The notes beneath the pieces were generated by a model, which did no database searches, was not told where the DNA came from, and saw only the letters and a program-made list of their open reading frames with translations. This document shows, piece after piece, positions 1 through 64,000 of a DNA stretch of 64,000 nt; position 1 is the stretch's first letter, and the number at the start of each line of letters is the position of its first letter. The position numbers were made by a program, and so were the translations under genes. The stretch comes from Struthio camelus (Eukaryota), in NCBI RefSeq assembly GCF_040807025.1, contig NC_090970.1, positions 837,359 through 901,358 of the forward strand. The letters are read 5' to 3'.

Positions 1-590
1 TTTCCCGGGCACCTGGGCCCCTCCCGGACACCTGGGCCCCTCCCCGGACGCCTGGGCCCCTTTCCCGGGCACCTGGGCCCCTTCCCCGGACGCCTGGGCC
101 CCTCCCCGGACACCTGGGTCCCTCCCTGGACGCCTGGGCCCCTTTCCTGGACACCTGGGCCCCTCCCCGGACACCTGGGCCCCTCACCGCTCGTCAGTGG
201 CGCACAACCGGGCCCCCCGGGCGCTGCACATGGCGCCCAGCATCTCCTGGAGCCGCTCGTTACCTGTGTGGGTAGATGGGAGCGGGTCGGGGGTCATCCC
301 GGACGCCTGGGCCCCTCCCCTGGATGCCTGGGCCCCTCCCCCGGACACCTGGGTCCCTCCCCCGGATGCCTGGGCCCCTTCCCCGGATGCCTGGGCCCCT
401 GCCCCGGACGCCTGGGCCCCTTCCCCGGATGCCTGGGCCCCTTCCCGGACACCTGGGCCCCTTTCCCAGACACCTGGGCCCCTTCCCCGGACGCCTGGGC
501 CCCTTTCCCAGACACCTGGGCCCCTTCCCCGGACACCTGGGCCCCTCCCCCGGACGCCTGGGCCCCTTCCCCGGACGCCTGGGCCCCACG
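1..590. repeat. 20-21-bp minisatellite (CCCGGACRCCTGGGCCCCTYC)n, C-rich strand on plus; interrupted by OSGEP exon 9 (188-263)
   Basis: Read directly. Same family as the arrays at 3100-3715, 3985-4925, 10960-12060, 16560-17740, 19840-21110, 23870-25250, 26560-26900, 40200-40900, 48330-49100 and 49920-50560. Confidence 0.9.
188..263 (-). CDS. OSGEP: OSGEP exon 9 (phase-2 donor cg|GTGAGG; remaining C-terminal exons lie before position 1)
   Basis: (C)[24 protein letters not shown](R) matches human [26 protein letters not shown]. Confidence 0.85.
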
Positions 591-593
591 TAC

Positions 594-684
594 AGCCGAC
601 GCCGCCCACCAGCAGCACCTCGGGGGACCGGCACTGGGCGGCCGCTCGCTCCGTCACCTCCACCAACATGGCGAACACCGTCTC
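594..684 (-). CDS. OSGEP: OSGEP exon 8
   Basis: [30 protein letters not shown](C) matches human [31 protein letters not shown]. Donor t|GTACGT. Confidence 0.85.
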
Positions 685-849
685 CTGCGGGGGGGGGGCA
701 ATCTCACAGCGGCACCCCCAAATACCCCCCGATTCACCCCAAAATACCTCCCCGCCCCCCCCATGCCCGCTGGGACCCCCCAAAAACAACCCCTCAAAAA
801 CTGCCCCCGGAAGAAACCCTAAAACCCCCCTAATACTCTCTAATACTCA

Positions 850-2860
850 TTAATACTCACTAATACCCCATTAATACTCTTTACCCCCTACTAATAGGCC
901 TTAAAAGCCCCCAAACAACCCCAAATACCCCCAAAACAGCCCCCCAAACCCCTCCGAAAGCCCCCAACGCTCCCCAAATACCCACCGGTACTCACTCCTA
1001 CTCCGTTAATACTCCCACGTGCAAAATACCCCCAGTGGCCCCTGTGGTACCCCCAACCCTCCCCGAGCCCGATACTTCCAGATACCCCAAACGCCCCATT
1101 AATACTCCCGCCCGGCCCCAAAACACTTCTTTCCACCCCAAAGACCCCCTGAAAGCCCTCAAAAATACTCTAGCATGCAAAATACCCCATTAATACTCCG
1201 TCCTGCTCTCCAGTACTTTCCAACACCCCCGATACCCCCCCCCATATTTTAGCAACGCTCCCCCAAGGCCTCAATACCCCCCAAACGCTTCCCCCATACC
1301 CCAAATACCCCGTTAATACTCCCGGATACTACAGCCCCCCCCCCCCAGCAGCCCCCAAACGCCTCCGAACGCACCCAAGTGCCCCCCAAATACCCCCAGC
1401 GACCCTGCAAATACCCCCCACGGCGCCCCAACACCCCCAAGGGTCACCCGATACCCTTTGACACCCCCAAATACCCCCCCCGGATACTCCCAAATACCCC
1501 CAAAATACAAAAAAAATACTCCCAAATACCCCAAATACTGCCCAAGTACACCAAAATACCACCCACGTACTCCCAAATACCCCCAAATAGGAAAAATACT
1601 CCCACACACCCCCCAGATATTCACCAAGTACACCAAAATATACCCCCATACTCCCAAATACCCCCAAATAGAAAAAAAATACTCCCAAATACTCCCAAAT
1701 ACCCCCAGATACTCCCTAAGTACACCAAAATACCGCCCACGTACTCCCAAATACCCCCAAATAGGAAAAATGCTCCCACATACCCCCCAGATACTCACCA
1801 AGTACACCAAAATATACCCCCATACTCCCAAATACCTCCAAATAGAAAAAATACTCCCAAATACTCCCAAATACCCCCAGATACTCCCTAAGTACACCAA
1901 AATACCACCCATGTACTCCCAAATACCCCCAAATAGGAAAAATACTCCCACATACCCCCCAGATACTCACCAAGTACACCAAAATATACCCCCATACTCC
2001 CAAATACCTCCAAATAGAAAAAATACTCCCAAATACTCCCACATACCCCCAGATACTCCCTAAGTACACCAAAATACCACCCATGTACTCCCAAATACCC
2101 CCAAATAGGAAAAATGCTCCCACATACCCCCCAGATACTCACCAAGTGCACCAAAACATACCCCACATACTCCCAAATACCCCCAACTAGGAAAAATACT
2201 CCCAAATACCCCCCCAGATACTCCATAAGTACACCAAAATACCGCCCACGTACTCCCAAAATACCCCCAAATAGGAAAAATACTCCCAAATACCCCCAGA
2301 TACTCACCAAGTACACCAAAACACCACCCACACACTCCCAAATAGAAAAAAATGCCCCCAGATACCCCCAGATACCCCCCAAGTACACCAAAACGCCACC
2401 CAGCTACTCCCCAGCACCCCCAAAATACTCCCAAATACCCCCAGATGCTTCCAAACACCCCAAATACCCCCAGGTCCTCCCCAAATACCCCAAATTACTC
2501 CCAAAATACCCCTAAGCACCGGCCAAACGCACCCAAGTACACAACAAAATACTCCCAAATACCCCCAAACACCCCCAGGCACCCCCAGATACTCCCCAAA
2601 TACCCCAATACTAACCAAGCACACCAAAACACTCTCCAAATACCACCTAGAGAGTCCCAAAAGACCCCCAAAATGCTCCCAAATCCCCCTGGATACTCCC
2701 AAACATCCCCAAATACCCCAAGTACCCTGCAAATACCCCAAAATACTAATTCATCACCTAGATACTCCAAAATACACACAAAAATACTCTGAATTACCCC
2801 CAAATACTCCCGAATACCCCCAGGTACTCCCAAACACCCCCCGGGCGCTCTCAAATACTC
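850..2860. repeat. Strand-asymmetric A+C-rich tandem repeat (about 165-bp unit built from CCCAAATACTCCCAAATACCCCCAGATACTC... sub-motifs) in OSGEP intron 8
   Basis: Units recur at about 1700, 1865, 2030 and 2195. The plus strand is almost G-free. Confidence 0.8.
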
Positions 2861-3023
2861 TAGGCCCCCACAAATGCTCCCCCCAAACCCCAAACGTTCC
2901 CAAATTACAGCAAAACACTCCCCAAAACAGCCCCCGGGGAGCCCGGACGCCCCCCCCAGGCCCGTCCGCAGACCCCCGGACGCCTGGGCCCCCGCCCCGG
3001 ACGCCTGGGCCCCCCGCGGGCAC

Positions 3024-3089
3024 CTGCAGCGAGAAGCAGAGATCCTCAACGGTGGCTTCGCCCGACGCCAGCAGCTGGGGGGCCACCGC
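3024..3089 (-). CDS. OSGEP: OSGEP exon 7
   Basis: [22 protein letters not shown] matches human [22 protein letters not shown]. 22 codons. Confidence 0.8.
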
Positions 3090-3099
3090 CTGCGGGGGG

Positions 3100-3715
3100 G
3101 CAGCCGGACGCCTGGGCCCCTCGCCCGGACGCCTGGGCCCCTTCCCCGGACACCTGGGCCCCTCGCCCGGACGCCTGGGCCCCTCGCCCGGACGCCTGGG
3201 CCCCCTCCCCGGACGCCTGGGCCCCTCGCCCGGACGCCTGGGCCCCTTCCCCGGACGCCTGGGACCCTCGCCCGGACGCCTGGGCCCCTTCCCCGGACGC
3301 CTGGGCCCCTTCCCCGGACACCTGGGTCCCTTCCCCGGACACCTGGGCCCCTCACCCGGATGCCTGGGCCCCTTCCCCGGACACCTGGGTCCCCTCCCCG
3401 GACACCTGGGCCCCTCCCCGGACACCTGGGCCCCCTCCCTGGATGCCTGGGCCCCTCCCCGGACACCTGGGCCCCTCCCCGGACACCTGGGCCCCTTCCC
3501 CGGACACCTGGGCCCCTGCCCGGACGCCTGGGCCCTTCCCCGGACACCTGGGCCCCCTCCCCGGACGCCTGGGCCCCTCCCCCGGACACCTGGGTCCCTT
3601 CCCCCGGACACCTGGGTCCCTCCCCGGACACCTGGGCCCCTTCCCCGGACACCTGGGCCCCTTCCCGGACACCTGGGCCCCTCGCCCGGACGCCTGGGCC
3701 CCTCCCGGACGCCTG
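3100..3715. repeat. 21-bp minisatellite family (C-strand on plus) in OSGEP intron 6
   Basis: ccggacgcctgggcccctcgcccggacgcctgggcccc... Confidence 0.9.
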
Positions 3716-3725
3716 GGCCCCTCAC

Positions 3726-3804
3726 CTCGATGTGCGACAGGAGGCCCGAGAAGGAGACGTCCAGGCCCTTCACCACGTACGGCAGCTCCAGCAGCTTCGT
3801 CCCC
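3726..3804 (-). CDS. OSGEP: OSGEP exon 6
   Basis: (K)[26 protein letters not shown] matches human [26 protein letters not shown]. Donor gag|GTGAGG. Confidence 0.85.
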
Positions 3805-3920
3805 CTGCGGCCGCAGCCCCGACCCCGCCGTCAGGGCCCCCCGGACGCCTGGGCCCCCCCTCCCCCCCCGGCCGCGTGGCAGGGGGCCCAGGCGTCCGGG
3901 CCGGCCCCCGAAACACTCAC

Positions 3921-3970
3921 TTCTTAGCCAGTTGTTCGATGTTGTAGCCGGGACTGGGGTCGTTGGAGAT
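3921..3970 (-). CDS. OSGEP: OSGEP exon 5
   Basis: [16 protein letters not shown](K) matches human [17 protein letters not shown]. Acceptor cccgcag, donor aa|GTGAGT. Confidence 0.85.
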
Positions 3971-3984
3971 CTGCGGGAGACCGG

Positions 3985-4925
3985 GCAGGACGTCCAACGG
4001 GGCCCAGGCGTCCGGGGAGGGCCCAGGCGTCCGGGGAGGGGCCCAGGTGTCCGGGAAAGGGGCCCAGGCGTCCGGGGAAAGGGCCCAGGTGTCCGGCGAA
4101 AGAGCCCAGGCATCCAGGGAGGGGCCCAGGCGTCCGGGGAAGGGGCCCAGGCGTCCGGGGAGGGGCCCAGGTGTCCGGGGAGGGGGCCCAGGCGTCCGGG
4201 AAAGGGGCCCAGGTGTCCGGGGAGGGGCCCAGGCATCCGGGGAGGGGCCCAGGTGTCCGGGGAGGGACCCAGGTGTCCGGGGAGGGGCCCAGGTGTCCGG
4301 GGCAGGAACCCAGGCGTCCGGGAAGGGGACCCAGGCGTCCGGGAAGGGGACCCAGGTGTCCGGGGGAGGGGCCCAGGTGTCTGGGGAAAGGGCCCAGGTG
4401 TCCGGGGAAGGGACCCAGGTGTCCGGGGAGGGGCCCAGGCGTCCGGGGCAGGAACCCAGGCGTCCGGGGCAGGAACCCAGGTGTCCGGGGCAGGGACCCA
4501 GGCGTCCGGGGCAGGAACCCAGGCGTCCGGGCCAGGGGGCCAGGTGTCCGGGGAGGGGCCCAGGCGTCCGGGGCAGGAACCCAGGCGTCCGGGCCAGGGG
4601 GCCAGGTGTCCGGGGAAGGGGCCCAGGCGTCCGGGGCCGGAACCCAGGTGTCCGGGGAAGGGACCCAGGCGTCCGGGGCAGGAACCCAGGCGTCCGGGGC
4701 AGGGACCCAGGCGTCCGGGGCCGGAACCCAGGCGTCGGGGGAAGGGACCCAGGTGTCCGGGGCAGGAACCCAGGCGTCCGGGGAGGGGCCCAGGCGTCCG
4801 GGGCCGGAACCCAGGCGTCCGGGGCAGGAACCCAGGTGTCCGGGGCAGGGACCCAGGCGTCCGGGGCAGGAACCCAGGTATCCGGGGCAGGAACCCAGGC
4901 GTCCGGTCCAGGGGGCCCAGGCGTC
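3985..4925. repeat. 21-bp minisatellite family (G-strand on plus: GGGGCCCAGGCGTCCGGGGMAGGR) in OSGEP intron 4
   Basis: Read directly. Confidence 0.9.
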
Positions 4926-4932
4926 CGGGCAC

Positions 4933-5028
4933 CTGCAGGGCGCGAGCGAAGCGGTCCAGGCAGTTGCCCACGGCCACGTCCAAGGTCTCGCCCAGGATGC
5001 GGTAGCGGCGCCGGGCGAAGGCGATCAC
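4933..5028 (-). CDS. OSGEP: OSGEP exon 4
   Basis: [32 protein letters not shown] matches human [32 protein letters not shown]. 32 codons, phase 0. Confidence 0.9.
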
Positions 5029-5122
5029 CTGCCGGCAGACGGAGAGCGAGAGTTCAGCGTTCGGCCCGGGGGCTCCGTGTCCCCCCCCCCCCCGAACACG
5101 CGTGTCGCCCCGAGCCGTGTAC

Positions 5123-5298
5123 CTGCGTGTTGCCGCCGCTGACGTAGAGCACGAGGGGGTCGCGGGCCCCGCACACCAGCCGCCCCATCTCGATGTGCCC
5201 CACGCAGTGGTTCACCCCCAGCAGCGGCCGGTCCCACAGCTGCGCCAGCGTCCGGGCCGCCGCCGCCACCACCGCCAGCGGCGCCCCCATGCCCGGCC
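5123..5298 (-). CDS. OSGEP: OSGEP exon 3
   Basis: (G)[58 protein letters not shown] matches human [45 protein letters not shown]...[10 protein letters not shown]. Donor cag|GTACAC. Confidence 0.9.
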
Positions 5299-5389
5299 CT
5301 GCGCCCCGCGCACGCTAAGCACACGTCAGCCCCCTCGTGCCCCCCCATGACCCCCACGCGCCTCCCGTGCGCTTGGGACGCGGCTATAA

Positions 5390-6660
5390 CCACCGATAAG
5401 GCCCCTGGGAGGAGTGCTGAGCGCACACGCTAAGCACATGCTAAGCACATGTGAACCCTATCACGCCTCTGGGGCCCCCCACGACCCCCACGCGCCTCCC
5501 GTGCGCTTGGGATGCGGCTATAGCCACTAATATGGCCCCCACGAGGAGTGCTGAGCGCACACGCTAAGCACATGCTAAGCACATGTGAGCCCTATCGAGC
5601 CTCTGGGGCCCCCCATGACCCCCACGCCCGTCCCGTGCGCTTGGGATGCGGCTATAACCACCGATAAGGCCCCTAGGAGGAGTGCGGAGCACACACGCTA
5701 AGCACATGCTAAGCACATGTGAACCCTATCACGCCTCTGGGGCCCCCCACGACCCCCACGCGCCTCCCGTGCGCTTGGGACGTGGCTATAACCACTAATA
5801 TGGCCCCCACGAGGAGTGCTGAGCGCACACGCTAAGCACATGCTAAGCACACGTGAGCCCTATCGCGCCTCTGGGGCCCCCCACGACCCCCACGCGCCTC
5901 CCGTGCGCTTGGGACGCGGCTATAGCCACTAATATGGCCTCCACGAGGAGTGCTGAGCGCACACGCTAAGCACATGCTAAGCACATGTGAACCCTATCGC
6001 GCCTCTGGGGCCCCCCACGACCCCCACGCGCCTCCCGTGCACTTGGGACGTGGCTATAACCACTAATATGGCCCCCACGAGGAGTGCTGAGCGCACACGC
6101 TAAGCACATGCTAAGCACATGTGAACCCTATCACACCTCTGGGGCCCCCCACGACCCCCACGCGCCTCCCGTGCGCTTGGGATGCGGCTATAGCCACCGA
6201 TAAGGCCCCTGGGAGGAGTGCTGAGCGCACACGCTAAGCACATGCTAAGTACATGTGAACACTATCACGCCTCTGGGGCCCCCCACGACCCCCACGCGCC
6301 TCCCGTGCGCTTGGGACGCGGCTATAGCCACTAATATGGCCCCCACGAGGAGTGCTGAGCGCACACGCTAAGCACATGCTAAGCACATGTGAACCCTATC
6401 ACGCCTCTGGGGCCCCCCACGACCCCCACGCGCCTCCCGTGCGCTTGGGATGCGGCTATAACCATCGATAAGGCCCCTGGGAGGAGTGCTGAGCGCACAC
6501 GCTAAGCACATGCTAAGCACATGTGAACCCTATCACGCCTCTGGGGCCCCCCACGACCCCCACGCGCCTCCCGTGCGCTTGGGATGTGGCTATAACCACT
6601 AATATGGCCCCCACGAGGAGTGCTGAGTGCACACGCTAAGCACACGCTAAGCACACACGA
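5390..6660. repeat. About 134-bp tandem repeat of about 9 copies in OSGEP intron 2
   Basis: TAAGCACATGCTAAGCACATGTGA recurs at 5431, 5564, 5698, 5833 .... Unit ...GAGCGCACACGCTAAGCACATGCTAAGCACATGTGAACCCTATCACGCCTCTGGGGCCCCCCACGACCCCCACGCGCCTCCCGTGCGCTTGGGACGCGGCTATAACCACTAATATGGCCCCCACGAGGAGTGCT. Confidence 0.9.
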
Positions 6661-6939
6661 CCCCGATTGGGCCTACATGACCCCCAGTGACTCCCACCCA
6701 CCTCCCCCCCACCCGGGACACGTCTCCAAGTGCTCCCAGGGCCCCGGGGACGCACACGGCACGCACACGCTAAGCACACGCTAAGCACACGCTAAGCACA
6801 CGCGACCCCGATCGGGCCTACATGACCCCCAATGACTCCCACCCACCCAGGACACGTCTCCGAGTGCTCCCAGGGCCCCGGGGACGCACACGGCACGCAC
6901 ACGCTAAGCACACGCTAAGCGCACGCCAAGGACACGCAC

Positions 6940-7059
6940 CGCGGGTGAAGGCCACGGCGTCGACGTCGGCCGCCCGCAGCCCGGCCTCCCGCAGCGCCGC
7001 CGCCACCAGCCCCGGCAGCCGCCGCCGGTGGTGCCGCGCCGCCGCCCCCGGGGCGAAGC
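6940..7059 (-). CDS. OSGEP: OSGEP exon 2
   Basis: ...HHRRRLPGLVAAALREAGLRAADVDAVAFTR(G) matches human ...[32 protein letters not shown]. Acceptor cgcgcag, donor GTGCGT. Confidence 0.75.
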
Positions 7060-7069
7060 CTGCGCGGGG

Positions 7070-7500
7070 GGGGGGGGGTCACCCAGGGGTCGGGGGTCAC
7101 GGCGGGGTCACGCGGAGGGGGGGGAGCGGGAGGGGGTCGCCCGGGGGGGTCAGGGGTCACGGGGGGAGGTCGGGGGTCATTCAGGGGTCACCCGGGGGGG
7201 GTCGGGGGTCGCCTCGGGGTCACGGGGGTCACAGAGGGAGGTCAGGGGTCATTCAGGGGTCACCCGGGGGGGGTCAGGGGTCAACCGGGGGGGTCAGGGG
7301 TCATTCAGAGGTCACCTGGGGTCAGGGGTCACGGGGGGGGTCAGGGGTCATTCGGAGGTCACCAGGGGGGTCAGGGGTCACGGGGGGAGGTCAGCGGTCA
7401 TTCAGGGGTCACCCAGGGGGGTCAGTGGTCACGGGGGGAGGTCAGGGGTCACCCGGGGGTCACGGGGGGTCAGGGGTCACGCGAGGGTCAGCGCTGCCCT
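7070..7500. repeat. About 22-44-bp repeat (GGGGTCAGGGGTCACGGGGGGAGGTCAGGGGTCATTCA)n in OSGEP intron 1; the same motif recurs at 59935-60050 in NDRG2
   Basis: Read directly. Contains GGGTCA-G-GGGTCA direct repeats. Confidence 0.85.
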
Positions 7501-7516
7501 CACCCCCCCCGAGCGG

Positions 7517-7780
7517 TGACGTCACTGGGGTGGGGGGGGGAGGGAAGGCCGTGACGTCAAAGAGCGGTGAGCTCGTGGAGGAGGGGGGGAAGGGCGGAAG
7601 TGACGTCACGGCGCGCGCGGGGAAGGGGGAGGAGGGCGGAAGTGACGCGGGCGCTCACCGTGGCCGGGCGCGGTGACGTAGGTGGCGCGCGGGTTGCTCA
7701 GCACCGCCCCGTCGCGCACCAGCCCCGCCCCCACCTTGTTGGCCGAGCCCTCCAGCCCCAGCACCACCGGCATGACGTCA
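7517..7780. promoter_or_regulatory. Four perfect CRE palindromes TGACGTCA (7517-7524, 7552-7559, 7601-7608, 7773-7780) at or around OSGEP exon 1; the last overlaps the OSGEP ATG
   Basis: Exact 8-mer matches read directly. Also a (GGC)8 triplet repeat (sense strand) at about 7805-7830, about 35 nt upstream of the OSGEP ATG, and ETS-like CTTCCG repeats at 7850-7865. Confidence 0.55.
7659..7773 (-). CDS. OSGEP: OSGEP coding exon 1 (ATG at 7773-7771; donor GT 7658-7657; phase 1)
   Basis: [38 protein letters not shown] matches human [39 protein letters not shown]. Confidence 0.85.
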
Positions 7781-7899
7781 CCGCCCGCGTCACCGCCCGC
7801 GTCACTGCCCGCGCTCCTCTCCCCGCGCCGCCGCCGCCGCCGCCGCCGCTTCCTACTTCCGCTTCCGGCCCCCGCGGGTCCCGCCCCTTCCGCTCACGT

Positions 7900-8460
7900 A
7901 GATCCGGCGCGCGCTGATTGGTTGGGGAAGCGGCGCGCGGGGAGGGGGAAGCGGCGGCGCGCGCGGATTGGCTGGAGCGGGGCGGGGGTGGGCGGGGGGA
8001 GGAGGAGGAGGGAGCAGCGGCCGGCGGCGCGCGCTGATTGGCTGGAGCGGGGCGGAGGGGGGCGGGGGGAGGAGGAGGAGGGAGCAGCGGCCGGCGGTGC
8101 GCGCTGATTGGCTGGAGCGGGGCGGGGGTGGGCGGGGGGAGGAGGAGGAGGGAGCAGCGGCCGGCGGCGCGCGCTGATTGGCTGGAGCGGGGCGGGGGTG
8201 GGCGGGGGGAGGAGGAGGAGGGAGCAGCGGCCGGCGGCGCGCGCTGATTGGCTGGAGCGGGGCGGGGGTGGGCGGGGGGAGGCGGAGGAGGGAGCAGCGG
8301 CCGGCGGTGCGCGCTGATTGGCTGGAGCGGGGCGGGGGTGGGCGGGGGGAGGCGGAGGAGGGAGCAGCGGCCGGCGGTGCGCGCTGATTGGCTGGAGCGG
8401 GGCGGGGGTGGGCGGGGGGAGGAGGAGGAGGGAGCAGCGGCCGGCGGCGCGCGCTGATTG
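7900..8460. promoter_or_regulatory. OSGEP/APEX1 bidirectional promoter: 70-bp unit repeated 8 times, each with one CCAAT/Y-box (GCTGATTGGCTG) and Sp1-type GC boxes (GGGGCGGGGG). Two further CCAAT + GC-box copies lie at 8461-8535, abutting the APEX1 ATG.
   Basis: The plus-strand ORFs 7968, 8038, 8108, 8178, 8248 and 8318 start exactly 70 nt apart with near-identical 69-aa translations. The unit GCGCGCTGATTGGCTGGAGCGGGGCGGGGGTGGGCGGGGGGAGGAGGAGGAGGGAGCAGCGGCCGGCGG is visible directly. It lies between the OSGEP ATG (7773, minus strand) and the APEX1 ATG (8539, plus strand). Confidence 0.7.
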
Positions 8461-55375: not shown

Positions 55376-55379
55376 GTGG

Positions 55380-57335
55380 GGCCGTTGCGGGGAGGGCGGT
55401 ATTTTGGGTGTATTTTGGGTTATTGTGGGTTTTTTTGGTGGATATTTTGGCTTTGGGGGGGGATATTTGGGGTGTATTTGGGTGTATTTAGGGTGACATC
55501 CCTGGAGGAGGAGCTCATGGTCACCATGTCCCAGGGAGGTATTTTGGGGTAACGGGGGCATTTGGGGGGGGTATTTGGGGTTATCGGGCAATTTGGGTGT
55601 AACAGGTTGTTTTTGGGGAGGTATTTAGGGGGTATTTGGGGTCTTGAAGCTGACATGTCCATGGAAGGACCTGGTGGCCACCATGCCCTGGAGAGGGGGT
55701 TGGGGGTGGTATTTGCAGGTATCAGGTTGTAATTAGGGTATTTTGGGGGTATCTGGGGGTATTGGGGGGTATTTAGGGTGTATTTGGGGGTAATGTGGGG
55801 GTTGCAAGGCTGTTTAGGGGTTATTTGGGGGCTTGTTGTGGTATTTTGGGGTATTTTGGGTGTCGGGAGTGTCTGGGTCCCATCCCTGCTCGGGGCCACC
55901 CTGTCCGGGGGTGGGGGGGGCATTTGGGGCAATATTGGGGCATTTTGGCATTTTTCTGGGGATTTCGTGGGGTATTTTGAGGGTGTTTTGGGTGTATCAG
56001 GGTGTTTTGGGGGCATTTAGGGGGTATTTTGGGGTATTCGGGTGCTGTCCCCACAGGAGGACCTGGTCACTGTGACCTCGGGGGCATTTTGGGGGTATTT
56101 TGGGTGTATTTGTGCATGTTGAGGTATGTTTTGGGGGTATTGATGGGGGTATGGTGGTATCTGGCTACCATCCCAACAAGAAGACCTGGTGGCCACCATA
56201 TCCAGAGAGGTATTTTGGGGGCAGTTGGGGCATTTTGGGTGTATTTGTGCACGTTTGGGTATGTTTTGGGTGTATTTATGGATGTTTTGAGGGTGTTGTG
56301 AGGGGTATTTTGGTGTATGGGGGGGTATCTGGGTGTTGTCACTGCAGGAGGACCTCATGGCCACCAGGTCCTGGGGGGTACCTGGGGGTTGTTGGGGCAT
56401 TTTTAGGGTATATTTTGGGGTATTTGAGGTGTATTTGTGCATGTTTAGATGTATTTTGGGTGAATTTGTAAGTATTTTGGGGGTGTTATGAGGGATAGGG
56501 GGGTATCTGGGTGGCGCCCTGCAGGAGGACCTCATGGCCACCATGGCCTGGAAACTATTTTGGGGGTATTTTCTGTGTATTTGGGCATATGTTGGGGGTA
56601 TATTTGGGGTATTTTTGAGTACTGTGGGGGTATCCGGGGGTGTTTTGGGGGTATTTGGGGGTATTTTGGGTATCCAGGCACTGTCCCTGTAGCAGGACCT
56701 CTTGGCCACCATGTCCTGGGGGTTATTTTGGGGATATTTTGCTGTTTTGGGTCTATTTTGGTGTCATTTTGGGGTATTTTGGGGGTATTGCAGGGGTATC
56801 TGGGGCAATTTTGGGGGTAATCGGGGGGATTTGGGGTATCCAGGCGCCATCCCCCGCAGGAGGACCTCATGGCCACCACATCTAGCGGGGCATTTTGAGG
56901 GTATTTTGCTATTTTGGTGTCATTTTGGGGTATTTGGGGGCTATTGCAGGAGTATCTAGGGGGAATTTTGGGGTTAACTGGGGGGATTTGGGGTATCCGG
57001 GTGTTGTCTCTGGAGGAGGACCTCATGGCCACCACATCCTGGGAGCTATTTGGAGGGTATTTTGGGTATGTTTGGGGTATATTGGAGGTACATTTTTGGC
57101 ATTTGTGGGTATTGCGGGGGTATTTGAGGATATTTTGGGGGAAATCAGGGGGCTTTAGGGTGTGTGGGCGCCGTCCCCGCGGGAGGACCTCATGGTCACC
57201 ATGTCCTGGGGGTGGCGTGGGGTATTTTGGGGGTGTTTTTGTGTAATTTGATGTAATTTTTTGGTATTTTGGGGCATTGCGGGGGTATCCGGGGGTATTT
57301 TTGGGGGGGATTTGGGGTATCCGGGCACCGTCCCC
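55380..57335. repeat. About 165-bp tandem repeat of about 11 copies, each containing a decayed copy of the downstream exon's acceptor + first codons (CAGGAGGACCTCATGGCCACCA)
   Basis: Copies at about 55500, 55655, 56050, 56180, 56345, 56520, 56690, 56850, 57010 and 57175. The real exon is at 57340. Confidence 0.8.
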
Positions 57336-57339
57336 ACAG

Positions 57340-57434
57340 GAGGAGCTCGCGGCCAACTCGGCCCTGGTGCAGCAGCGGCGCCGGGCCCTGGCGGCGGCCC
57401 CCAACACCCCCCTCTACTGGGCCATGTACAACAG
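57340..57434 (+). CDS. NDRG2: NDRG2 exon
   Basis: [31 protein letters not shown] matches human [35 protein letters not shown]. Acceptor tccccacag, donor ag|GTGGGG. Confidence 0.85.
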
Positions 57435-57439
57435 GTGGG

Positions 57440-59290
57440 GCGATGGGGGCCGATGGGGGGGTGACCGGGGCTACTGGAAGGGAAAATAGGCCAATGGGGG
57501 ACCACTGGGGTGATGGGGGGGTGACTGGGCCAAAGGGGGGGTCAACGGGGGCAACTGGGGCAGACTAGGGGGCAATTGGGGTGCTGGAGGGGCAACTGGG
57601 CCAATGGGAGGGTCAACAGGGGCTACTGGGGGGATCAATGAGGGGGCAACTGGGGTGACAGGGGTCAATGGGGGCAACTGGGGAGCAATTGAGGTGATGA
57701 GACAACTGGGTCAGTGAGGGGGTCAACGGGGGCTACTGGGATGGCTAGGGAGCTACTGGGGGGCAACTGGGGCAGACTAGGGGGCCATTGGGCTGCCAGA
57801 GGGGCAACTGGGCCAATGGGAGGGTCAACGGGGGCTAATGGGGGTGTAAATAGGTCAATGAGGGGGCAACTGGGGTGACGGGGGTCAATGGGGGCAATTG
57901 GGGGGCAACTGAGGTGACGAGGCAAGTGGGTCAGTGAGGGGGTCAACGGGGGCTACTGGGGGGGGTAAATAGGCCAATGGAGGGCAACTGGGGAGATGCA
58001 GGGGCAACTGGGGTGGTGATGGGGCAATGGGGCTAATGGAGTGTCAATAGGGGTGAATGGGGGGGCTACTGGGGTGGTGGGCAATCAACGGGGCCAGTGG
58101 GGGGGTCAATGGGGACAACTGGGGTGACTGGGGGGCAACTGGGGAGATGGGGGGGCAACTAGGCCAACGGGGGTCAACAGGGGTCAATGGGGGCAACTGG
58201 GGGGGCAACTGGGGTGGTGGTGGGACCACTGAGCCAACGGGGGGCAACTGGGCCAACTGGGGGAGGTCAATGGGTCCAACGGGGAGCCAATGGGGGGGCA
58301 GTTGGGCCAACTGGGGCCAGCTAGGTCAATGGGGGGGAAACTGGGTCAATGGGGGTGTCAATGGGGCCAACGGGGGGGGCAACTGGACCTACGGGGAGGT
58401 CAGTGGGGGGTAAATGGGGGACCAATGGGTCAGCAGGGGGGGGCAACTGGGCTAATGGGGGGGTCAGTGGGGTCAAGTGGGCAGAACTAGGCCAATGGGG
58501 GGGGTCAATAGGGCCAACGGGGGGGCAACTGGGCCAACGGGGTCAGTGGGGTCAACGGGTGGGCAATTGGGCCGACAGGGGGGGGCCAATGGGGTCAACT
58601 GGGTCAGCAGGAGGTCAATGGGGCCAATGGGGGGACAACTGGGCCAACAGGGGGGTCATTCAGGTCAACTGGGGGTCAACTGTGCCAAGGGGGGGATCAA
58701 CAGGGCCAATGGGGGGGTCAGTAGAGTCAATGGGGGGGTCAATGGGGGTCAACTGGGCCAAGGGTGGGATCAGCAGGGGGTCAGTGGGGTCAACAGGGGG
58801 TCAAGGGGTCAACTGGGCCAATAGGGGGTCAATGGGGCCAGCAGGGGGGCAACTGGGCCAACGAGGGGGCCATTCAGGTCAATTGGGGGTCAACTGAGCC
58901 AATGGGGGGGATCAATGGGACCAACAGGGGGTCAGTAGGGTCAACGGGGGGGTCAATGGGGGTCAACTGGGCCAATAGGGGGTCAAAGGGGCCAGTGGGG
59001 GGCAACTGGGTGGATGGGGGGGGCCATTCAGGTCAACTGGGGGTCAACTGGGCCAATAGGGGGGGGTCAACGGGACCAACGGGGGGGTCAGTAGGGTCAA
59101 CAGAGGGGTCAATGGGGTCAACAGGGCCAATAGGGGGTCAACGGGACCAACGGGGCGACAATGGGGGGTCAACTGGGCCAGCAGGAGGTCAATGGGGCCA
59201 AGGGGGGGGTCAACGGGGTCAAGTGGGGTCAAGGGGGGTCAACGGGGTCAAGTGGGGTCAAGGGGGGGTCAACGGGGTCAAGGGGGACCA
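57440..59290. repeat. About 30-bp repeat (GGGGCAACTGGGCCAATGGGGGTCAACGGG)n in an NDRG2 intron
   Basis: Read directly. Confidence 0.85.
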
Positions 59291-59322
59291 GAGCGACCCC
59301 CCCCCCCCGACCCCCCCAACAG

Positions 59323-59367
59323 CCGCCGGGACCTGGGCCTGGAGCGCAGCGGCGACGGCCCCCTCAA
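59323..59367 (+). CDS. NDRG2: NDRG2 exon
   Basis: (S)[14 protein letters not shown](K) matches human RRDLNFERGGDITLR. Donor aa|GTGAGC. Confidence 0.82.
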
Positions 59368-59608
59368 GTGAGCGACCCCTGACCCCCCCCCGCGTGACCC
59401 CTGACCCCTGCATGACCCCCCCATGCGACCCCTGACCATCCCCCGCATGATGACCCCCATCCCCCCACCGCGACCCTTGACCTCCCCAGCCACCCCCATC
59501 TCCCACGTGACTCCACACCAACCCCCCCACACCGTGACCCTTGACCCTGGGGGGGTCAGAGGTCACCCACGCGTGACTCCGCCTCCCCCCCCCCCCAAAA
59601 AAAACCAG

Positions 59609-59660
59609 GTGCCCGGTGCTGCTGGTGGTGGGCGACAGCTCCCCCCATGAGGACGCCGTG
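59609..59660 (+). CDS. NDRG2: NDRG2 exon
   Basis: (K)[17 protein letters not shown] matches human CPVMLVVGDQAPHEDAV. Donor gtg|GTGAGT. Confidence 0.9.
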
Positions 59661-59765
59661 GTGAGTGGGGGGGGCGGAGCTCAGGCGAGGGGGCGGGGCC
59701 GTGACGCAGGGGGGGCGTGGCCACGGCCGCCAAGCCCCGCCCCCCTCCTCCCGCTCCCCCTCTAG

Positions 59766-59813
59766 GTGGAATGCAACGCCCGGCTGGACCCCACCCAGAC
59801 CTCCTTCCTCAAG
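59766..59813 (+). CDS. NDRG2: NDRG2 exon
   Basis: [16 protein letters not shown] matches human [16 protein letters not shown]. Acceptor ctctag, donor aag|GTAGCC. Confidence 0.92.
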
Positions 59814-59894
59814 GTAGCCCCGCCCCCTTTCCCCCCCCAGCGTGGCCACGCCCCCTTCCCCACGCGTGGCCACGCCCCCTTTTCCTCCCCGCAG

Positions 59895-59930
59895 ATGGCC
59901 GACGGCGGCGGGCAGCCCCAGATCAGCCAG
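59895..59930 (+). CDS. NDRG2: NDRG2 exon
   Basis: [12 protein letters not shown] matches human MADSGGQPQLTQ. Donor cag|GTGAGG. Confidence 0.9.
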
Positions 59931-60060
59931 GTGAGGGGGGGGTCATGGGGGGTCAGGGGTCACGGGGGGTCAGGGGTCACGGGGGGGTCAGGGGTCACGG
60001 GGGTGGGGTCAGGGGTCACGGGGGGTCAGAGGTCATGACCCCTCCCCTCCCCCCCCGCAG

Positions 60061-60112
60061 CCCGCCAAGCTCACCGAGGCCTTCAAGTACTTCGTGCAGG
60101 GCATGGGCTACA
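60061..60112 (+). CDS. NDRG2: NDRG2 exon
   Basis: [17 protein letters not shown](M) matches human [18 protein letters not shown]. Donor a|GTGAGT. Confidence 0.92.
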
Positions 60113-60114
60113 GT

Positions 60115-61260
60115 GAGTAATTAGCGCGCCGCTTCTTAATTAATTAAAGCCCTGGGGGGTGCTGGGGGGGGGGGTTAGGTTGCCAGGGGCAATTAGGTTC
60201 CCCCATAGGGCAATTAACCCCCCTCAGGAGCTATTAGCTCCCCCCATAGGGTAATTAAACTCCGTGTAGGGTAATTAAGCCCCCCTAGGGGCAATTAGCT
60301 CCCCCCCATATGGTAATTAACCACCCCATAGGGTAATTAAGCCCCCCTAGGGGCAATTAGCTCCCCCCATATGGTAATTAACCCCCCCATAGGGTAATTA
60401 ACCCCCACCAAGGGCAACTAGCTCCCCCCCATAAGGTAATTAACCTCCCTGTAGGGTAATTAAGCCCTCCCAGGGGCAATTAGCTCCCCCTACAGGGTAA
60501 TTAACCCCTCCCAGGGGCAATTAGGTCCCTTCATAGGGTAATTAAGCCCTCCCAGGGGCAATTAGCTCCCCCTATAGGGTAATTAACCCCCCCCAGGGGC
60601 AATTAGGTACCTTCATAGGGTAATTAAGCTCCTCATAGGGCAATTAGCTCCCCCCATAAGGTAATTAAGCCCTCCCAGGGGCAATTAGCTCTCCCTATAG
60701 GGTAATTAACCCCCCCCAGGGGCAATTAGGTCCCTTCATAGGGTAATTAAGCTCCTCATAGGGCAATTAGCTCCCCCCATAGGGTAATTAAGCCCTCCCA
60801 GGGGCAATTAGCTCCCCCTACAGGGTAATTAACCCCCCCCAGGGGCAATTAGGTCCCTTCATAGGGTAATTAAGCTCCTCATAGGGCAATTAGCTCCCCC
60901 CATAGGGTAATTAAGCCCTCCCAGGGGCAATTAGCTCCCCCCATAGGGTAATTAAGCCCTCCCAGGGGCAATTAGCTCCCCCCATAGGGTAATTAACCCC
61001 CTTATGGAGTAATTAAGCCCCCCCAGGGGCAATTAGTTCCCTCCATAGGGTAATTAACCCCCTTATGGGGCAATTAGCTTCCCTCATAGGGTAATTAACC
61101 CCCTTATGGAGTAATTAAGCCCCCCCAGGGGCAATTAAGTCCCCCCGTAGGGTAATTAACCCCCTTATGGGGCAATTAGCTCTCTCCATAGGGTAATGAA
61201 CCTCCCCTCCCCCCGTTCCGGGTAATTAAGCCCCCCCCGGGTATTTACCCCCCCCCGCTC
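60115..61260. repeat. About 40-bp tandem repeat (GGGTAATTAAGCCCTCCCAGGGGCAATTAGCTCCCCCATA)n of about 28 copies in the last NDRG2 intron, with a TAATTA core every about 20 bp
   Basis: Read directly. Starts right after the exon donor at 60113. Confidence 0.85.
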
Positions 61261-61669
61261 CGGGTAATTACCCTCTCCCCCCTCCCCCCAGTCCCCAACC
61301 TGCCCGACCGCCGCCTCGGCCCAGGTACCGGCCGACACGCGTGTGCGGGGGGCGGGGGCAGGTCACGTGTGCTGTGCTCCGCCCCCTCCGCGGTCACGTG
61401 TGCTGCCCCACCCCCCCCCCCCACCGTCACGCGTGTGCGCCTCTCTCCCCCCTCCCTGCACTACGTCACGTGTGCTCCTCCCCCTCCAGGCGGGGGGGGC
61501 GTGGCCGGGGGGTGGAGGGGGCGTGGCCGGCGGGGAAGGGGGACACGCAGCCAATGGGGCGCGGCGCGGGCTCCCGGGGGGCGTGGCCAAGCGGGAAGGC
61601 GGGGCGGGGTGGAGAATGGAGGGGCGTGGCCGGCGGCGGGCTGGGCCAATGGGGTCGCTGCTGACTGGG

Positions 61670-62770
61670 CCGGGGAGCCGTTGCCGGGGCAACGGGGCAC
61701 TGTGGAGGGTTGGGCGGAGGGGGCGTGGCCGGCGGCGGTCTGGGCCAATGGGATGGCTGCTGACTGGGCCGGGGAGGGGGGGGGGAGTGTTGCCGGGGCA
61801 ACGGGGCGCGGAGGGGAGGGCTGCTGACTGGGCGGGGGGAACGTTGCCAGGGCAACGGGGCGCGGAGGGGAGGGCTGCTGACTGGGCGGGGGAACGTTGC
61901 CAGGGCAACGGGGCGCGGAGGGGAGGGCTGCTGACTGGGCGGGGGAACGTTGCCAGGGCAACGGAGCGAGGAGGGGAGGGCTGCTGACTGGGCGGGGGAA
62001 CGTTGCCAGGGCAACGGGGCGCGGAGGGGAGGGCTGCTGACTGGGCGGGGGAACGTTGCCAGGGCAACGGGGCGCGGAGGGGAGGGCTGCTGACTGGGCG
62101 GGGGAACGTTGCCAGGGCAACGGGGGGCGGAGGGGAGGGCTGCTGACTGGGCGGGGGGGAACGTTGCTACGGCAACGGGGCGCGGAGGGGAGGGCTGCGG
62201 CGGGCTGGGACAATGGGATGGCTGCTGACTGGGCGGGGGGAACGTTGCCAGGGCAACGGGGCGCGGAGGGGAGGGCTGCTGACTGGGCGGGGGAACGTTG
62301 CCAGGGCAACGGAGCGAGGAGGGGAGGGCTGCTGACTGGGCGGGGGAACGTTGCCAGGGCAACGGGGCGCGGAGGGGAGGGCTGCTGACTGGGCGGGGGG
62401 GAACGTTGCTACGGCAACGGGGCGCGGAGGGGAGGGCTGCGGCGGGCTGGGACAATGGGATGGCTGCTGACTGGGCGGGGGGAACGTTGCCAGGGCAACG
62501 GGGCGCGGAGGGGAGGGCTGCTGACTGGGTGGGGACAGCGTTGCCAGGGCAACAGGGCGCGGAGGGGAGGGCTGCGGCGGGCTGGGCCAATGGGGTGGCT
62601 GCTGACTGGGCCGGGGGGGGGGGAGCGGGAGTGTTGCCGGGGCAACGGGGCGCGGAGGGGAGGGTAGCGGTGGAGGGGGCGTGGCCTGCAGCGGTCTGGC
62701 CCAATGGGGTGGCTGCTGACTGGGTCGGGGAGAGGGAAGCGTTGCCGGGGCAACGGGGGAAGCGTTGCAG
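61670..62770. repeat. About 59-bp tandem repeat of about 18 copies in the last NDRG2 intron, each containing the palindrome GTTGCCAGGGCAAC (RFX X-box consensus GTTGCC-NN-GGCAAC)
   Basis: Unit GGCTGCTGACTGGGCGGGGGAACGTTGCCAGGGCAACGGGGCGCGGAGGGGAGG. Variants GTTGCCGGGGCAAC and GTTGCTACGGCAAC. Followed at 62660-63030 by about 8 copies of GGGGGCGTGGCC (GC-box like) just upstream of the terminal exon. Confidence 0.8.
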
Positions 62771-63051
62771 CGGAGGGGGCGTGGCCAGCGGTGAAGTGGG
62801 CCAATGGGGCGGGAGGGGGCGTGGCCAGCGCGTGTGTATCGACGGTGGGGAGAACGGGCCAAGAGGAAGGGGGCGCGGCCGGGGTGGGCGTGGCCGGGGT
62901 GGAATGGGCGTGGCCAGCGGAGGGAGTGGGCGTGGCCAGGGGGCAGCAGCCAGCGCTCTCCCTGCCGGAGCTGCGCTATTACGCGGGGGGGCGGGGGCGT
63001 GGCCTCCGAGGGGCGGGGGCGTGGCCTAACTCGCCCCCGCCCCCTCCGCAG

Positions 63052-63179
63052 TGGCATCGTCGTGCATGACACGGCTGTCGCGGTCGCGCACGGCCTCGCT
63101 CTCCAGCGGCGCCTCGGGCGACGGCGGCCGGGCCCGGAGCCTGTCGCGGGGCAGCGAGGCTTCGCCCGCCGCCTGCTGA
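63052..63179 (+). CDS. NDRG2: NDRG2 terminal coding exon (TGA 63177-63179)
   Basis: Acceptor cccctccgcag. (M)[41 protein letters not shown] matches human [40 protein letters not shown].... Shorter Ser/Arg tail than human. Confidence 0.85.
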
Positions 63180-63189
63180 ACCCGCCGCC

Positions 63190-64000
63190 CCCTCCCCAAA
63201 TCCTCCCCAGATCCCCCCCGGACTCCATAGCCCCCCCCCCAAAACCCTCCCCAGACTCGAAATCCCCCCAAATCCTCCCCAGACGCCCCCCCCCCGGACT
63301 CGATACCCCCCCAATATCCCCCCAAATCCTCCCCAGACCCCCCTGGACTCGATATCCCCCCCGATATCCCCCCCAAAACCCTTCCCAGACCCGATATCCC
63401 CAATATCCCCCCATATCTTCCCCAGACCCCCCCCCGGACTCGATGTCCCCCCCAATATCCCCCCAAATCCCCCTGGACTCGATATCCTCCCAATATCCCC
63501 CCAAATCCTTCCCAGACCCCCTCCCTGGACTTGATATCCCCCCCAATATCCCCCCAAATCCTTCCCAGACCCCCCCTGGACTCGATATCCCCCCAATATC
63601 CCCCCAAATCCTCCCCAGATCCCCCTGGACTCGATATCCTCCCCAATATCCCCCCAAATCCTCCCCAGACCCCCTCTCAGACTCGATATCCCCCCCGATA
63701 TCCCCCCCAAATCCTTCCCAGACCCCCCGGGACTCGATATCCTCCCCAATATCCCCCCAAATCCTTCCCAGACCCCCTCTCAGACTCGATATCCCCCCCA
63801 ATATCCCCCCAAATCCTCCTCAGACCCCCTCTCAGACTCGATATCCTCCCAATATCCCCCCAAATCCTTCCCAGACCCCCTCTCAGACTCGATATCCCCC
63901 AATATCCCCCCAAATCCTCCTCAGACCCCCTCTCAGACTCGATATCCCCCCCAATATCCCCCCAAATCTTCCTCAGACCCCCTCTCAGACTCGATATCCC
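63190..64000. repeat. About 60-bp tandem repeat (CCCCAGACCCCCTGGACTCGATATCCCCCCAATATCCCCCCAAATCCT)n in the NDRG2 3'UTR
   Basis: Read directly. Begins 10 nt after the stop codon and continues to the window end. Confidence 0.85.

Follow-up and report, generated by a model that had tools for sequence, protein, structure and literature searches.

Introduction

On the dot chromosomes of the chicken, GC-rich and conserved genes lie at high density, with introns and spacers full of imperfect tandem repeats whose units measure tens of bases, an architecture published as 'sequence stuttering' (Hron et al. 2026, Genome Biol Evol, PMC12954441). The arrays are detected by Tandem Repeats Finder, interspersed repeats are absent and turtles are unaffected. 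That study stresses a local origin of the repeats with occasional copying of exon edges, infers independent, recent expansion from the differences that it 'often' notes between related species in orthologous introns, and reports that the ostrich has chromosomes of dot-like gene content. Here we describe a 64,000-nucleotide stretch of the ostrich (Struthio camelus) genome (contig NC_090970.1; the whole stretch is hereafter called the window), which carries the genes OSGEP (minus strand), APEX1 (plus), PIP4P1, also named TMEM55B (minus), PNP (plus) and NDRG2 (plus), and whose introns and spacers hold tandem arrays dominated by a family of 21-bp units (GGGGCCCAGGCGTCCGGGGA).

A second described system is that of the zebra finch. 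According to a preprint, tandem repeats make up >70% of the introns of zebra finch dot chromosomes, with units that are multiples of 10–11 bp (bioRxiv 10.1101/2025.10.17.683159); there and in a companion preprint (bioRxiv 10.1101/2025.10.14.682431), 'a specific minisatellite sequence' is stated to dominate introns and intergenic euchromatin, and G-quadruplexes (G4) to be abundant. The former text suggests roles of the minisatellites in splicing or recombination and notes poor PacBio coverage of such regions; term searches within it returned nothing on the origin of the arrays or on their orthology across species. A third related group is that of the 'hidden' or 'missing' GC-rich avian genes (Lovell 2014; Hron 2015; Botero-Castro 2017, as cited in PMC12954441), which are microchromosomal, hard for short reads and marked by extreme G+C content at third codon positions (GC3) and by proteins shifted towards Gly, Ala, Arg and Pro.

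The ostrich block shares these features of stuttering and of the hidden genes, except that its five genes are correctly modelled. It differs from the stuttering described in the chicken in that exon-derived copies were not found, in that arrays are common to ostrich and emu and in part to duck and owl, and in that one motif family extends over more than 20 arrays. With high confidence we regard the window as a gene-dense piece of an ostrich microchromosome, with five orthologues and stuttering-type arrays of which many are old and positionally stable. The architecture as such has already been described, and the ostrich block is a further example, from a palaeognath and at an annotated locus; only the conservation of arrays between birds and the origin proposed here for the 21-mer, from an element found in turtles, go beyond the literature searched.

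Results and discussion

Tandem-repeat architecture of the ostrich block

The window is part of a microchromosome-sized record of 6,963,444 bp. Its mean G+C content is roughly 65–70%, with stretches near 80%, and tandem repeats identified by Tandem Repeats Finder occupy 76.7% of its length; what remains is about sixty short islands of unique sequence. The coding sequence, reconstructed as five spliced models with 40 coding exons (listed further below), has a combined length of 4,521 nt, equal to 7.06% of the window, where the initial annotation, made from the sequence letters, had given about 8%. That annotation also stated that essentially every intron is a tandem array; arrays are present in 29 of the 35 introns, among them every intron longer than 250 nt, each of which consists of array to 45–99%, and the six array-free introns measure 94–230 nt. 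The introns are thus dominated by locally repeated blocks, as in stuttering. Intergenic spacers and both head-to-head promoters hold arrays as well. Most array bases belong to repeats with periods of 21, 10, 31, 20 and 11 bp, which match the multiples of 10–11 bp given for the zebra finch. A tally of periods lying within 1 of a multiple of 10.5 (82%) was discarded, because its tolerance grows with the period and is therefore unfair; only the list of dominant periods is usable.

Copies of exon edges, a feature that the chicken study mentions, were not seen adjacent to any exon, and a BLASTN comparison of the 40 exons with the exon-masked window returned nine weak low-complexity matches. Because PMC12954441 calls such copies occasional, their absence from five genes does not exclude membership in the stuttering class. 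The zebra finch minisatellites concern another species and, it seems, another motif, and the ostrich 21-mer differs in that its G-rich strand has no preference for the coding strand.

Comparison loci were taken from emu, owl, duck, band-tailed pigeon and sea turtle, a sample with no galliform, passerine or crocodilian. Tandem repeats make up 68–88% of the locus in emu, owl, duck and pigeon, and 10–15% of the two turtle loci, where the gene cluster is compact with short introns and spacers. Copy numbers of the arrays differ two-fold or more between species. GC3 is 95.7% over the ostrich genes (92.6–98.1% gene by gene), a value that the initial annotation had put near 100%; on the comparative scale it is 0.95–0.96 in ostrich, 0.84–0.98 in the four birds scored and 0.81–0.88 in turtle. 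The summed fraction of Gly, Ala, Arg and Pro is 0.36–0.40 in birds versus 0.30 in turtle. The block is thereby a clean palaeognath case, in which the architecture is found in ostrich and emu, as also in duck, owl and pigeon, and is absent from a turtle with the same gene order; it adds an ordinary example to the documented survival of conserved housekeeping genes where the euchromatin of a bird microchromosome is rich in G+C and filled with minisatellites. In keeping with the explanation offered in the literature, GC-biased gene conversion in a chromosome of high recombination would push third positions to G or C and enrich the four amino acids, arrays would grow and shrink by replication slippage and by unequal exchange or gene conversion, and selection would meanwhile hold the short exons and their splice sites.

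The first intron of PNP is filled by the following array:

27206–37788, plus strand: PNP intron 1 array, 10.6 kb, units of 31/62/124 bp, about 55% GC

It contains a tandem duplication of 3,261 bp (30.0–33.3 kb against 33.26–36.56 kb) whose halves are 97–100% identical, with about 2.4 kb at 100% identity; it is due either to a very recent unequal exchange or to an assembly artefact. Such a block could be a mis-assembly, and poor PacBio coverage of comparable regions is on record in the zebra finch preprint, so that one may ask whether the repeat architecture at large is an artefact of long-read arrays that were expanded, collapsed or mis-joined. However, the independent assemblies of emu, owl, duck and pigeon reach the repeat shares given above, mostly in the same introns among those compared; exons, phases and splice sites are all intact in the ostrich; and in the chicken, raw nanopore reads bore out the arrays (PMC12954441). 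We consider an artefact on this scale very improbable.

Arrays shared between birds

Orthologous introns of OSGEP and APEX1 were compared by strand-specific 9-mer spectra (cosine). Between ostrich and emu, nine of the eleven orthologous introns yielded values of 0.31–0.80, against a mean of 0.057 for non-orthologous introns, and the arrays agree in position, motif and orientation in nine of eleven. Three arrays extend beyond the palaeognaths, those of OSGEP intron 2 and APEX1 intron 1 to both duck and owl and that of OSGEP intron 1 to duck only. The corresponding cosines were 0.40 (OSGEP intron 1), 0.25 (OSGEP intron 2) and 0.31 (APEX1 intron 1) for ostrich and duck (non-orthologous mean 0.004), 0.28 (OSGEP intron 2) and 0.51 (APEX1 intron 1) for ostrich and owl (0.007), and 0.50 and 0.44 in the same two introns for owl and duck (0.013). 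In the pigeon, these three introns contain different motifs.

The clearest example is the following array:

8739–10766, plus strand: APEX1 intron 1 array, CCTCCCAGTG x ~198, with a short ACCAGTAT-type array ahead of it (8605–8661)

In this intron the ACCAGTAT-type array comes first, followed by 198 copies of CCTCCCAGTG in ostrich, 124 in emu and 102 in duck; the owl has the array too. Cosines between ostrich and emu, duck or owl are 0.31–0.67 here, compared with 0.004–0.06 for non-orthologous introns.

From these spectra, many arrays appear to have kept motif and orientation since the split of ostrich and emu, and three since before the separation of palaeognaths and neognaths. With divergence dates as generally known, this amounts to positional conservation over tens to probably more than 100 million years. 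Weighing against orthology is that a few motif families recur across genes and species, for instance CCCCATTGA in ostrich NDRG2 intron 3 and pigeon APEX1 introns 1 and 3, so that part of the sharing between species could reflect a common motif vocabulary.

Persistence of this kind might also mean that selection maintains all or part of the arrays for what they do, as clusters of transcription-factor sites near the promoters, recombination hotspots, G-quadruplexes or splicing elements, and that they are not neutral by-products. The motifs of OSGEP introns 1 and 2 and APEX1 intron 1 persist from ostrich to duck or owl, the two first introns lie on either side of the shared promoter, CCAAT, GC-box and E-box sites are present in many copies owing to the arrays within promoters (see below), and the zebra finch preprint suggests roles in splicing or recombination. 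Yet the copy number in APEX1 intron 1 varies widely among three species, the pigeon has other motifs in place of these, the turtle keeps the genes without the arrays, array orientation is unrelated to the direction of transcription, and array length varies within chicken populations (PMC12954441). Maintenance by selection is therefore, in our judgement, quite unlikely.

Several observations on individual arrays may be added. The arrays of OSGEP intron 1 (7060–7658 in ostrich) are built of GGGGTCA / AGGTCA words in ostrich, emu and duck, and the duck unit (L003 8513–9399; GGGGTCAAAGGTCA) resembles a direct repeat of nuclear-receptor half-sites with 1-base spacing, which may be coincidental. NDRG2 intron 3 (52311–53427) is occupied by a 10-mer array (CCCCCATTGA / CATTGACCCC); the same motif fills APEX1 introns 1 and 3 of the pigeon (L005 10088–10309 and 12020–13438) and occurs in duck APEX1 intron 3 (L003 20006–25984). 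A limited common stock of ~10-bp motifs seems to supply the arrays of bird dot chromosomes. A further array lies in PNP:

38256–40022, plus strand: PNP intron 2 array, GGGGGGTCCT x 176, with G-runs on the sense strand

An 88-nt tRNA-Pro(GGG) called by ARAGORN at 39952–40039 falls within or at the edge of this array and was dismissed as a false positive, Rfam being silent; an Rfam scan of the window at gathering thresholds returned no RNA gene.

The 21-bp family and a dispersed turtle element

The dominant 21-bp family forms more than 20 arrays, which together take up about 21% of the window and are found in the spacers and in introns of each of the five genes. Of its core GCCCAGGYGTCCGG there are 399 copies, 200 on one strand and 199 on the other. 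The orientation of the G-rich strand bears no relation to the strand of the gene and is mixed within each gene. The emu locus (27.5 kb) contains 220 copies of the core and has a variant of the 21-mer with a GGGAAA tail; the owl and duck loci contain none. The arrays of the family, with their counterparts in other species, are the following ('up' refers to the strand as listed):

4–587, plus strand: OSGEP introns 9 and 8, 21-bp family, C-rich up; one copy, likewise oriented, in turtle intron 9
2974–3723, plus strand: end of OSGEP intron 7 and intron 6, C-rich up, CCGGACACCTGGGCCCCTCC x 30; emu the same; element copies, likewise oriented, in turtle intron 6
3999–4929, plus strand: OSGEP intron 4, G-rich up, GGGGCCCAGGCGTCCGGGGCA x 45; emu the same; 2 copies, likewise oriented, in turtle intron 4
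10960–12062, plus strand: APEX1 intron 2, G-rich up, x 54; emu the same; pigeon has AGGGACCCAGGAGTGCCCC x 33 in the same orientation
16579–17716, plus strand: APEX1–PIP4P1 spacer, G-rich up, x 55; turtle spacer has one copy in the same orientation
19846–21118, plus strand: PIP4P1 intron 6, C-rich up, x 61; a copy, likewise oriented, in turtle intron 6
21582–22919, plus strand: PIP4P1 intron 4, 25/26-bp variant, G-rich up, x 54; turtle has 5 tandem copies in the same orientation
23876–25238, plus strand: PIP4P1 intron 2, 21-bp family, C-rich up, x 66; emu and turtle in the same orientation
26558–26904, plus strand: start of PNP intron 1, 21-bp family, C-rich up, 31 nt past the exon-1 donor
40229–40940, plus strand: PNP intron 3, family array, C-rich up; emu in the same orientation; turtle none
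41213–42771, plus strand: PNP intron 4, 29-bp variant, G-rich up; emu in the same orientation; turtle none
45725–47756 and 48348–49753, plus strand: PNP–NDRG2 spacer, family arrays, the former with a 48-bp compound unit and G up, the latter C up
49943–50547 and 50973–51917, plus strand: NDRG2 introns 1 and 2, family arrays, G up and C up, respectively

The turtle loci contain a dispersed element of ~80 bp with the core CCCAGGAGTCCTGG, sometimes in 2–5 tandem copies. A search with the ostrich core at up to 2 mismatches found 10 matches in turtle locus L004, where 0.97 were expected, and eight of these ten lie within copies of the element. Among 26 compartments of the four genes shared with the turtle, ostrich arrays occupy 15, the turtle element 11 and both together 10 (Fisher p=0.0045). 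In nine of the ten shared compartments the ostrich array and the turtle element have the same orientation, and the tenth is tied; as both orientations occur within each gene, this agreement is not accounted for by gene strand.

Two further comparisons bear on the relationship. At the start of PNP intron 1, where the turtle has two motif copies versus an array in ostrich and emu, the distance from the exon-1 donor to the first motif copy is 20 nt in turtle and about 33 nt in ostrich and emu; the donor is followed by GTGTGCGCGGGGGGAGGGGC-GGACTCCTGGGTCCTCTCC in turtle and by GTGCGCGG...GGGGGGGCC-GGACACCTGGGTCCCTCCCC in ostrich, with an equivalent sequence in emu. Pigeon arrays contain the cores of both ostrich and turtle in exact form, along with intermediates such as CCCAGGAGTCCGGG; the pigeon variant lies in APEX1 intron 2 and in OSGEP introns 4 and 6, oriented as in ostrich.

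These data suggest that the 21-mer arrays are probably in-place amplifications of ancient element copies that were later homogenised within lineages. The ~80-bp dispersed repeat would already have occupied these positions in the common ancestor of turtles and birds, and amplification in place of a ~20-bp piece of it would have given the 21-mer with its core CCCAGGCGTCCGG. Later homogenisation within each lineage would account for the one lineage-specific consensus across introns.

Several points weigh against such an origin. Only the core of ~15 nt is demonstrably common to the bird 21-mer and the turtle element; a hidden Markov model (HMM) of the whole element found no match in the bird loci with nhmmer, and the core spacers in the unexpanded PIP4P1 intron 5 of the ostrich are no more element-like than shuffled sequence. 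In five compartments an ostrich array is without a turtle counterpart, and conversely the element is present in APEX1 intron 1 of the turtle, where the ostrich has no 21-mer array. On the turtle side, the data stem from one or two assemblies that are much alike, the copies at loci L004 and L007 having identical nhmmer scores, and neither ARAGORN, Rfam nor literature searches with the bird and turtle motifs gave the element a name. Together with the presence of one consensus in more than 20 arrays and of a variant peculiar to the emu, which call for either recent origin or strong homogenisation, the missing turtle copies and the brevity of the common core would fit a 21-bp family that spread recently in palaeognaths as a mobile or ectopically seeded minisatellite, its likeness to the turtle element being coincidence or that of a short GC-rich word. 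Against such a spread stand the co-occurrence and common orientation in the shared compartments, the placement past the PNP exon-1 donor, equal within about 15 nt, and the pigeon arrays with both cores and intermediates in the same introns and orientations; moreover, ostrich and emu arrays are already orthologous. We hold a recent spread to be unlikely, if worth keeping in mind, and prefer amplification from element copies in place.

A candidate extension of the same idea, that the CCTCCCAGTG family arose from the CCCTCCCAGAG part of the turtle element, was rejected for APEX1 intron 1, where the orientation is opposite.

As to dot-chromosome intronic minisatellites in general, we lean slightly towards the view that many are ancient orthologous arrays dating from before the palaeognath–neognath split and that the commonest palaeognath family was seeded by an element and homogenised. 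If this were true genome-wide, what has been seen as recent local instability would become the repeated expansion and homogenisation of old seeds. Stuttering would gain a datable origin, a defined seed and a component of concerted evolution, and there would be a concrete way to date the start of the process in the archosaur line.

The five genes

Exons were located by tblastn seeded with approximate human protein probes, which served as seeds only, the identifications resting on later searches; the gene models were then built with a purpose-written splice-aware protein aligner, and four terminal exons were corrected from the DNA sequence itself. The coding exons are:

OSGEP, 187–7773, minus strand: 9 coding exons, codons 1–290
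OSGEP exons 1–5, minus strand: 7659–7773, 6940–7059, 5123–5298, 4933–5028, 3921–3970
OSGEP exons 6–9, minus strand: 3726–3804, 3024–3089, 594–684, 187–263
APEX1, 8539–14761, plus strand: 4 coding exons, 314 aa
APEX1 exons, plus strand: 8539–8608, 10791–10957, 12154–12346, 14247–14761
PIP4P1 (TMEM55B), 19695–25733, minus strand: 7 coding exons, 255 aa
PIP4P1 exons, minus strand: 25646–25733, 25256–25434, 23758–23864, 22925–23030, 21446–21498, 21125–21215, 19695–19838
PNP, 26516–45642, plus strand: 6 coding exons, 311 aa (isoform X2)
PNP exons, plus strand: 26516–26526, 38012–38178, 40066–40169, 40987–41162, 42826–43016, 45356–45642
NDRG2, 49869–63179, plus strand: 14 coding exons, 333 aa
NDRG2 exons 1–7, plus strand: 49869–49916, 50857–50965, 51935–52055, 53433–53495, 53633–53693, 53805–53891, 55319–55375
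NDRG2 exons 8–14, plus strand: 57340–57434, 59323–59367, 59609–59660, 59766–59813, 59895–59930, 60061–60112, 63052–63179

All five genes were recovered by spliced modelling in the order and orientation first proposed for them, and the proposal that they can be reconstructed exon by exon with canonical splice sites holds equally: GT–AG borders flank 35 of 35 introns, and no model contains an internal stop or a frameshift. OSGEP is incomplete, with codons 1–290 of ~335 in the window and the last ~45 codons past position 1. The first coding exon of PNP, which carries the start codon and was located by a pattern search, comprises 11 nt (26516–26526) and is followed by an 11.5-kb intron that consists of array to 94%. 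The first pick of the aligner for NDRG2 exon 1 (50296–50418) proved to be a translated repeat open reading frame, the true start being at 49869, and a longer PIP4P1 exon 2 (acceptor 25503) is absent from the database, the canonical acceptor at 25434 yielding the RefSeq protein. The caution that plain open-reading-frame finding would call dozens of false genes here was fair, the six frames containing 1,273 stop-free stretches of at least 20 codons; one of them runs for 550 codons through repeats.

The products are identical, residue for residue, to the RefSeq ostrich proteins XP_068777937.1 (APEX1), XP_068777949.1 (PIP4P1), XP_068777948.1 (PNP) and XP_068777970.1 (NDRG2). RefSeq isoform X1 of PNP (332 aa) uses an acceptor near 37948, 63 nt upstream of the X2 acceptor at 38012, and its 21 specific residues (RLQNTCRTGPACLPLGGAGVG) have no counterpart in the alignment with human PNP. 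The current ostrich RefSeq thus contains all five genes in correct models, the locus being neither hidden nor mis-annotated there, and the same genes are annotated in many further long-read bird assemblies. The initial annotation had classed such loci as typically missing, collapsed or mis-annotated in short-read assemblies; the difficulty of assembly agrees with PMC12954441 and bioRxiv 10.1101/2025.10.17.683159, and the mis-annotation does not apply to RefSeq. It counts against the models that their predicted junctions rest on homology and on identity to RefSeq's own predictions.

Comparison of the spliced products with known proteins, a check set beforehand, returned the expected families over the full length, for OSGEP as far as the window reaches, and all five products scored far above the curated Pfam cut-offs (TsaD, Exo_endo_phos, Tmemb_55A, PNP_UDP_1 and Ndr). 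OSGEP (TsaD PF00814, E=1e-73) aligned with residues 1–290 to residues 1–290 of human OSGEP (6gwj_K, E=9e-141); archaeal Kae1 and bacterial TsaD scored far lower. It contains an HxxxH sequence, which we take to be the metal-binding motif of OSGEP / Kae1, the TsaD-family catalytic subunit of KEOPS. APEX1 (Exo_endo_phos PF03372, E=2e-32) aligned end to end, 1–314 with human APE1 1–318 (E=6e-137). Its catalytic motifs, including GSDHCPITL, are all identical to those of human APE1, whose catalytic residues we take to be N68, D70, E96, D210, N212, D308 and H309. At 10900–10957, within exon 2, ostrich KVTSWN stands against human KICSWN, with Thr instead of the redox Cys at the position of human C65; this Cys (Ref-1 activity) is presumably confined to mammals, and orthology of the nuclease is unaffected. 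The words 'redox regulator' in its RefSeq name may therefore not hold for the ostrich protein.

PIP4P1 matched Tmemb_55A (PF09788) over positions 1–248 of 248 (E=1e-106) and carries CKASSQR, which fits CX5R, presumably the phosphatase motif of this type 1 phosphatidylinositol-4,5-bisphosphate (PI(4,5)P2) 4-phosphatase; its assignment as TMEM55B versus TMEM55A rests only on the synteny with APEX1 and PNP and on the RefSeq name. PNP (PNP_UDP_1 PF01048, E=4e-51) aligned with residues 4–285 to human PNP 6–286 (E=4e-99), and LITN is among the conserved motifs; we assume for the conserved residues the active-site roles of trimeric purine nucleoside phosphorylase. The end of the last PNP exon (45540–45642) encodes an acidic low-complexity tail (PPDDEEEEEAEGRRGEEEEEEGDGARRQAA) past the end of human PNP, which may be a repeat expansion of the coding region. 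Emu PNP has a comparable tail and, in addition, an Asp/Gly-rich insertion within the domain.

The NDRG2 product (Ndr PF03096, E=9e-101) scored 435 bits with human NDRG2 versus 364 with NDRG3 and 338 with NDRG1 in a comparison with Protein Data Bank (PDB) entries, NDRG4 being without one. The missing NDRG4 entry and the RefSeq label 'NDRG2-like' are what could be said for some of the five being pseudogenes or paralogues, NDRG2 being for instance another NDRG member. Set against this, of the best 120 relatives 94 carry a source name and all 94, from shark to mammals, are named NDRG2, because of which we consider the RefSeq label over-cautious; the NDRG2 score exceeds that of NDRG3 by 70 bits, reading frames are uninterrupted in every gene, the catalytic motifs of APEX1, PNP, OSGEP and PIP4P1 are kept and synteny is conserved. 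Pseudogenes or paralogues are scarcely credible at this locus. With canonical splice sites and conserved catalytic motifs, the five genes look like intact, ordinary orthologues.

Gene order in other species

Sea turtle locus L004 carries OSGEP (minus), APEX1 (plus), Tmemb_55A (minus) and PNP (plus) in the same order and orientation as the ostrich, with both head-to-head pairs, within ~22 kb; the four-gene span from OSGEP to PNP is about 46 kb in the ostrich. Emu, owl and duck have OSGEP (minus), APEX1 (plus) and PIP4P1 (minus), and in the emu PIP4P1 (minus) and PNP (plus) are found as well. The distance from PNP to NDRG2 is 4.2 kb in ostrich and >10 kb in emu. For human 14q11.2 we assume the same order and orientation of OSGEP, APEX1, PIP4P1 and PNP, including both head-to-head pairs, and, presumably, the RNase A cluster and other genes lie there between PNP and NDRG2; a literature search found no open-access paper on the human OSGEP/APEX1 head-to-head arrangement. 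In the band-tailed pigeon (L005 15857–24034), APEX1 is followed by 60KD_IMP (OXA1L-like) and an RNF31-like gene, with no PIP4P1 or PNP there, a local rearrangement by which the pigeon departs from ostrich, emu, owl, duck and turtle.

Head-to-head promoters and AT-rich islands

OSGEP and APEX1, and likewise PIP4P1 and PNP, are each predicted to be driven from a short CpG-rich head-to-head promoter:

7774–8538, no strand: OSGEP/APEX1 head-to-head promoter, 765 bp between the start codons, 81% GC
25734–26515, no strand: PIP4P1/PNP head-to-head promoter, start codons 782 bp apart

Within the first, an array at 7952–8464 consists of 7.3 copies of a 70-bp unit, each with CTGATTGGCT, a CCAAT box on the opposite strand, and GGGGCGGGG. 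Ten ATTGG motifs are present in the 765 bp, and multiple ATTGG occur in this promoter in all six species (ostrich, emu, owl, duck, pigeon and turtle). The second contains 3.3 copies of a 103-bp unit (25861–26201), each with an E-box (GTCACGTG), ATTGG and GC boxes. By their sequence, these motifs could function as NF-Y or Sp1 sites or as E-boxes. Upstream of PIP4P1, a region of about 500 bp (25740–26250) contains seven E-boxes of the form CACGTG, most of them within GTCACGTGG; about three of the seven stem from the 103-bp tandem repeat. The E-boxes resemble sites of the CLEAR type, and TMEM55B is, we assume, a target of TFEB/TFE3 in mammals.

Two islands of AT-rich sequence interrupt DNA of ~70% GC:

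47800–48130, plus strand: AT-rich island between PNP and NDRG2, packed with TTAATTAA / TAATTA
50590–50810: second AT-rich island, TTAATTAA / TAATTA; further sites at 60136–60147 and 17794

The window contains 14 copies of TTAATTAA, compared with 0.01 expected. At the orthologous spot 3' of PNP, the emu has a 1.4-kb array (L006 27909–29314) with 37 copies of TTAATTAA; the contrast with the ostrich island therefore points to another repeat seed, expanded in one lineage only. The motifs might in addition serve NDRG2 as a regulatory cluster of the homeodomain type.

Between APEX1 and PIP4P1, a non-repetitive island (17750–18180) is 73% identical to emu over 441 bp and partly matched in owl. A minus-strand AATAAA near 17750 is a candidate for the end of a PIP4P1 3' untranslated region of ~1.9 kb, which would contain the 70-bp array at 18307–19446.

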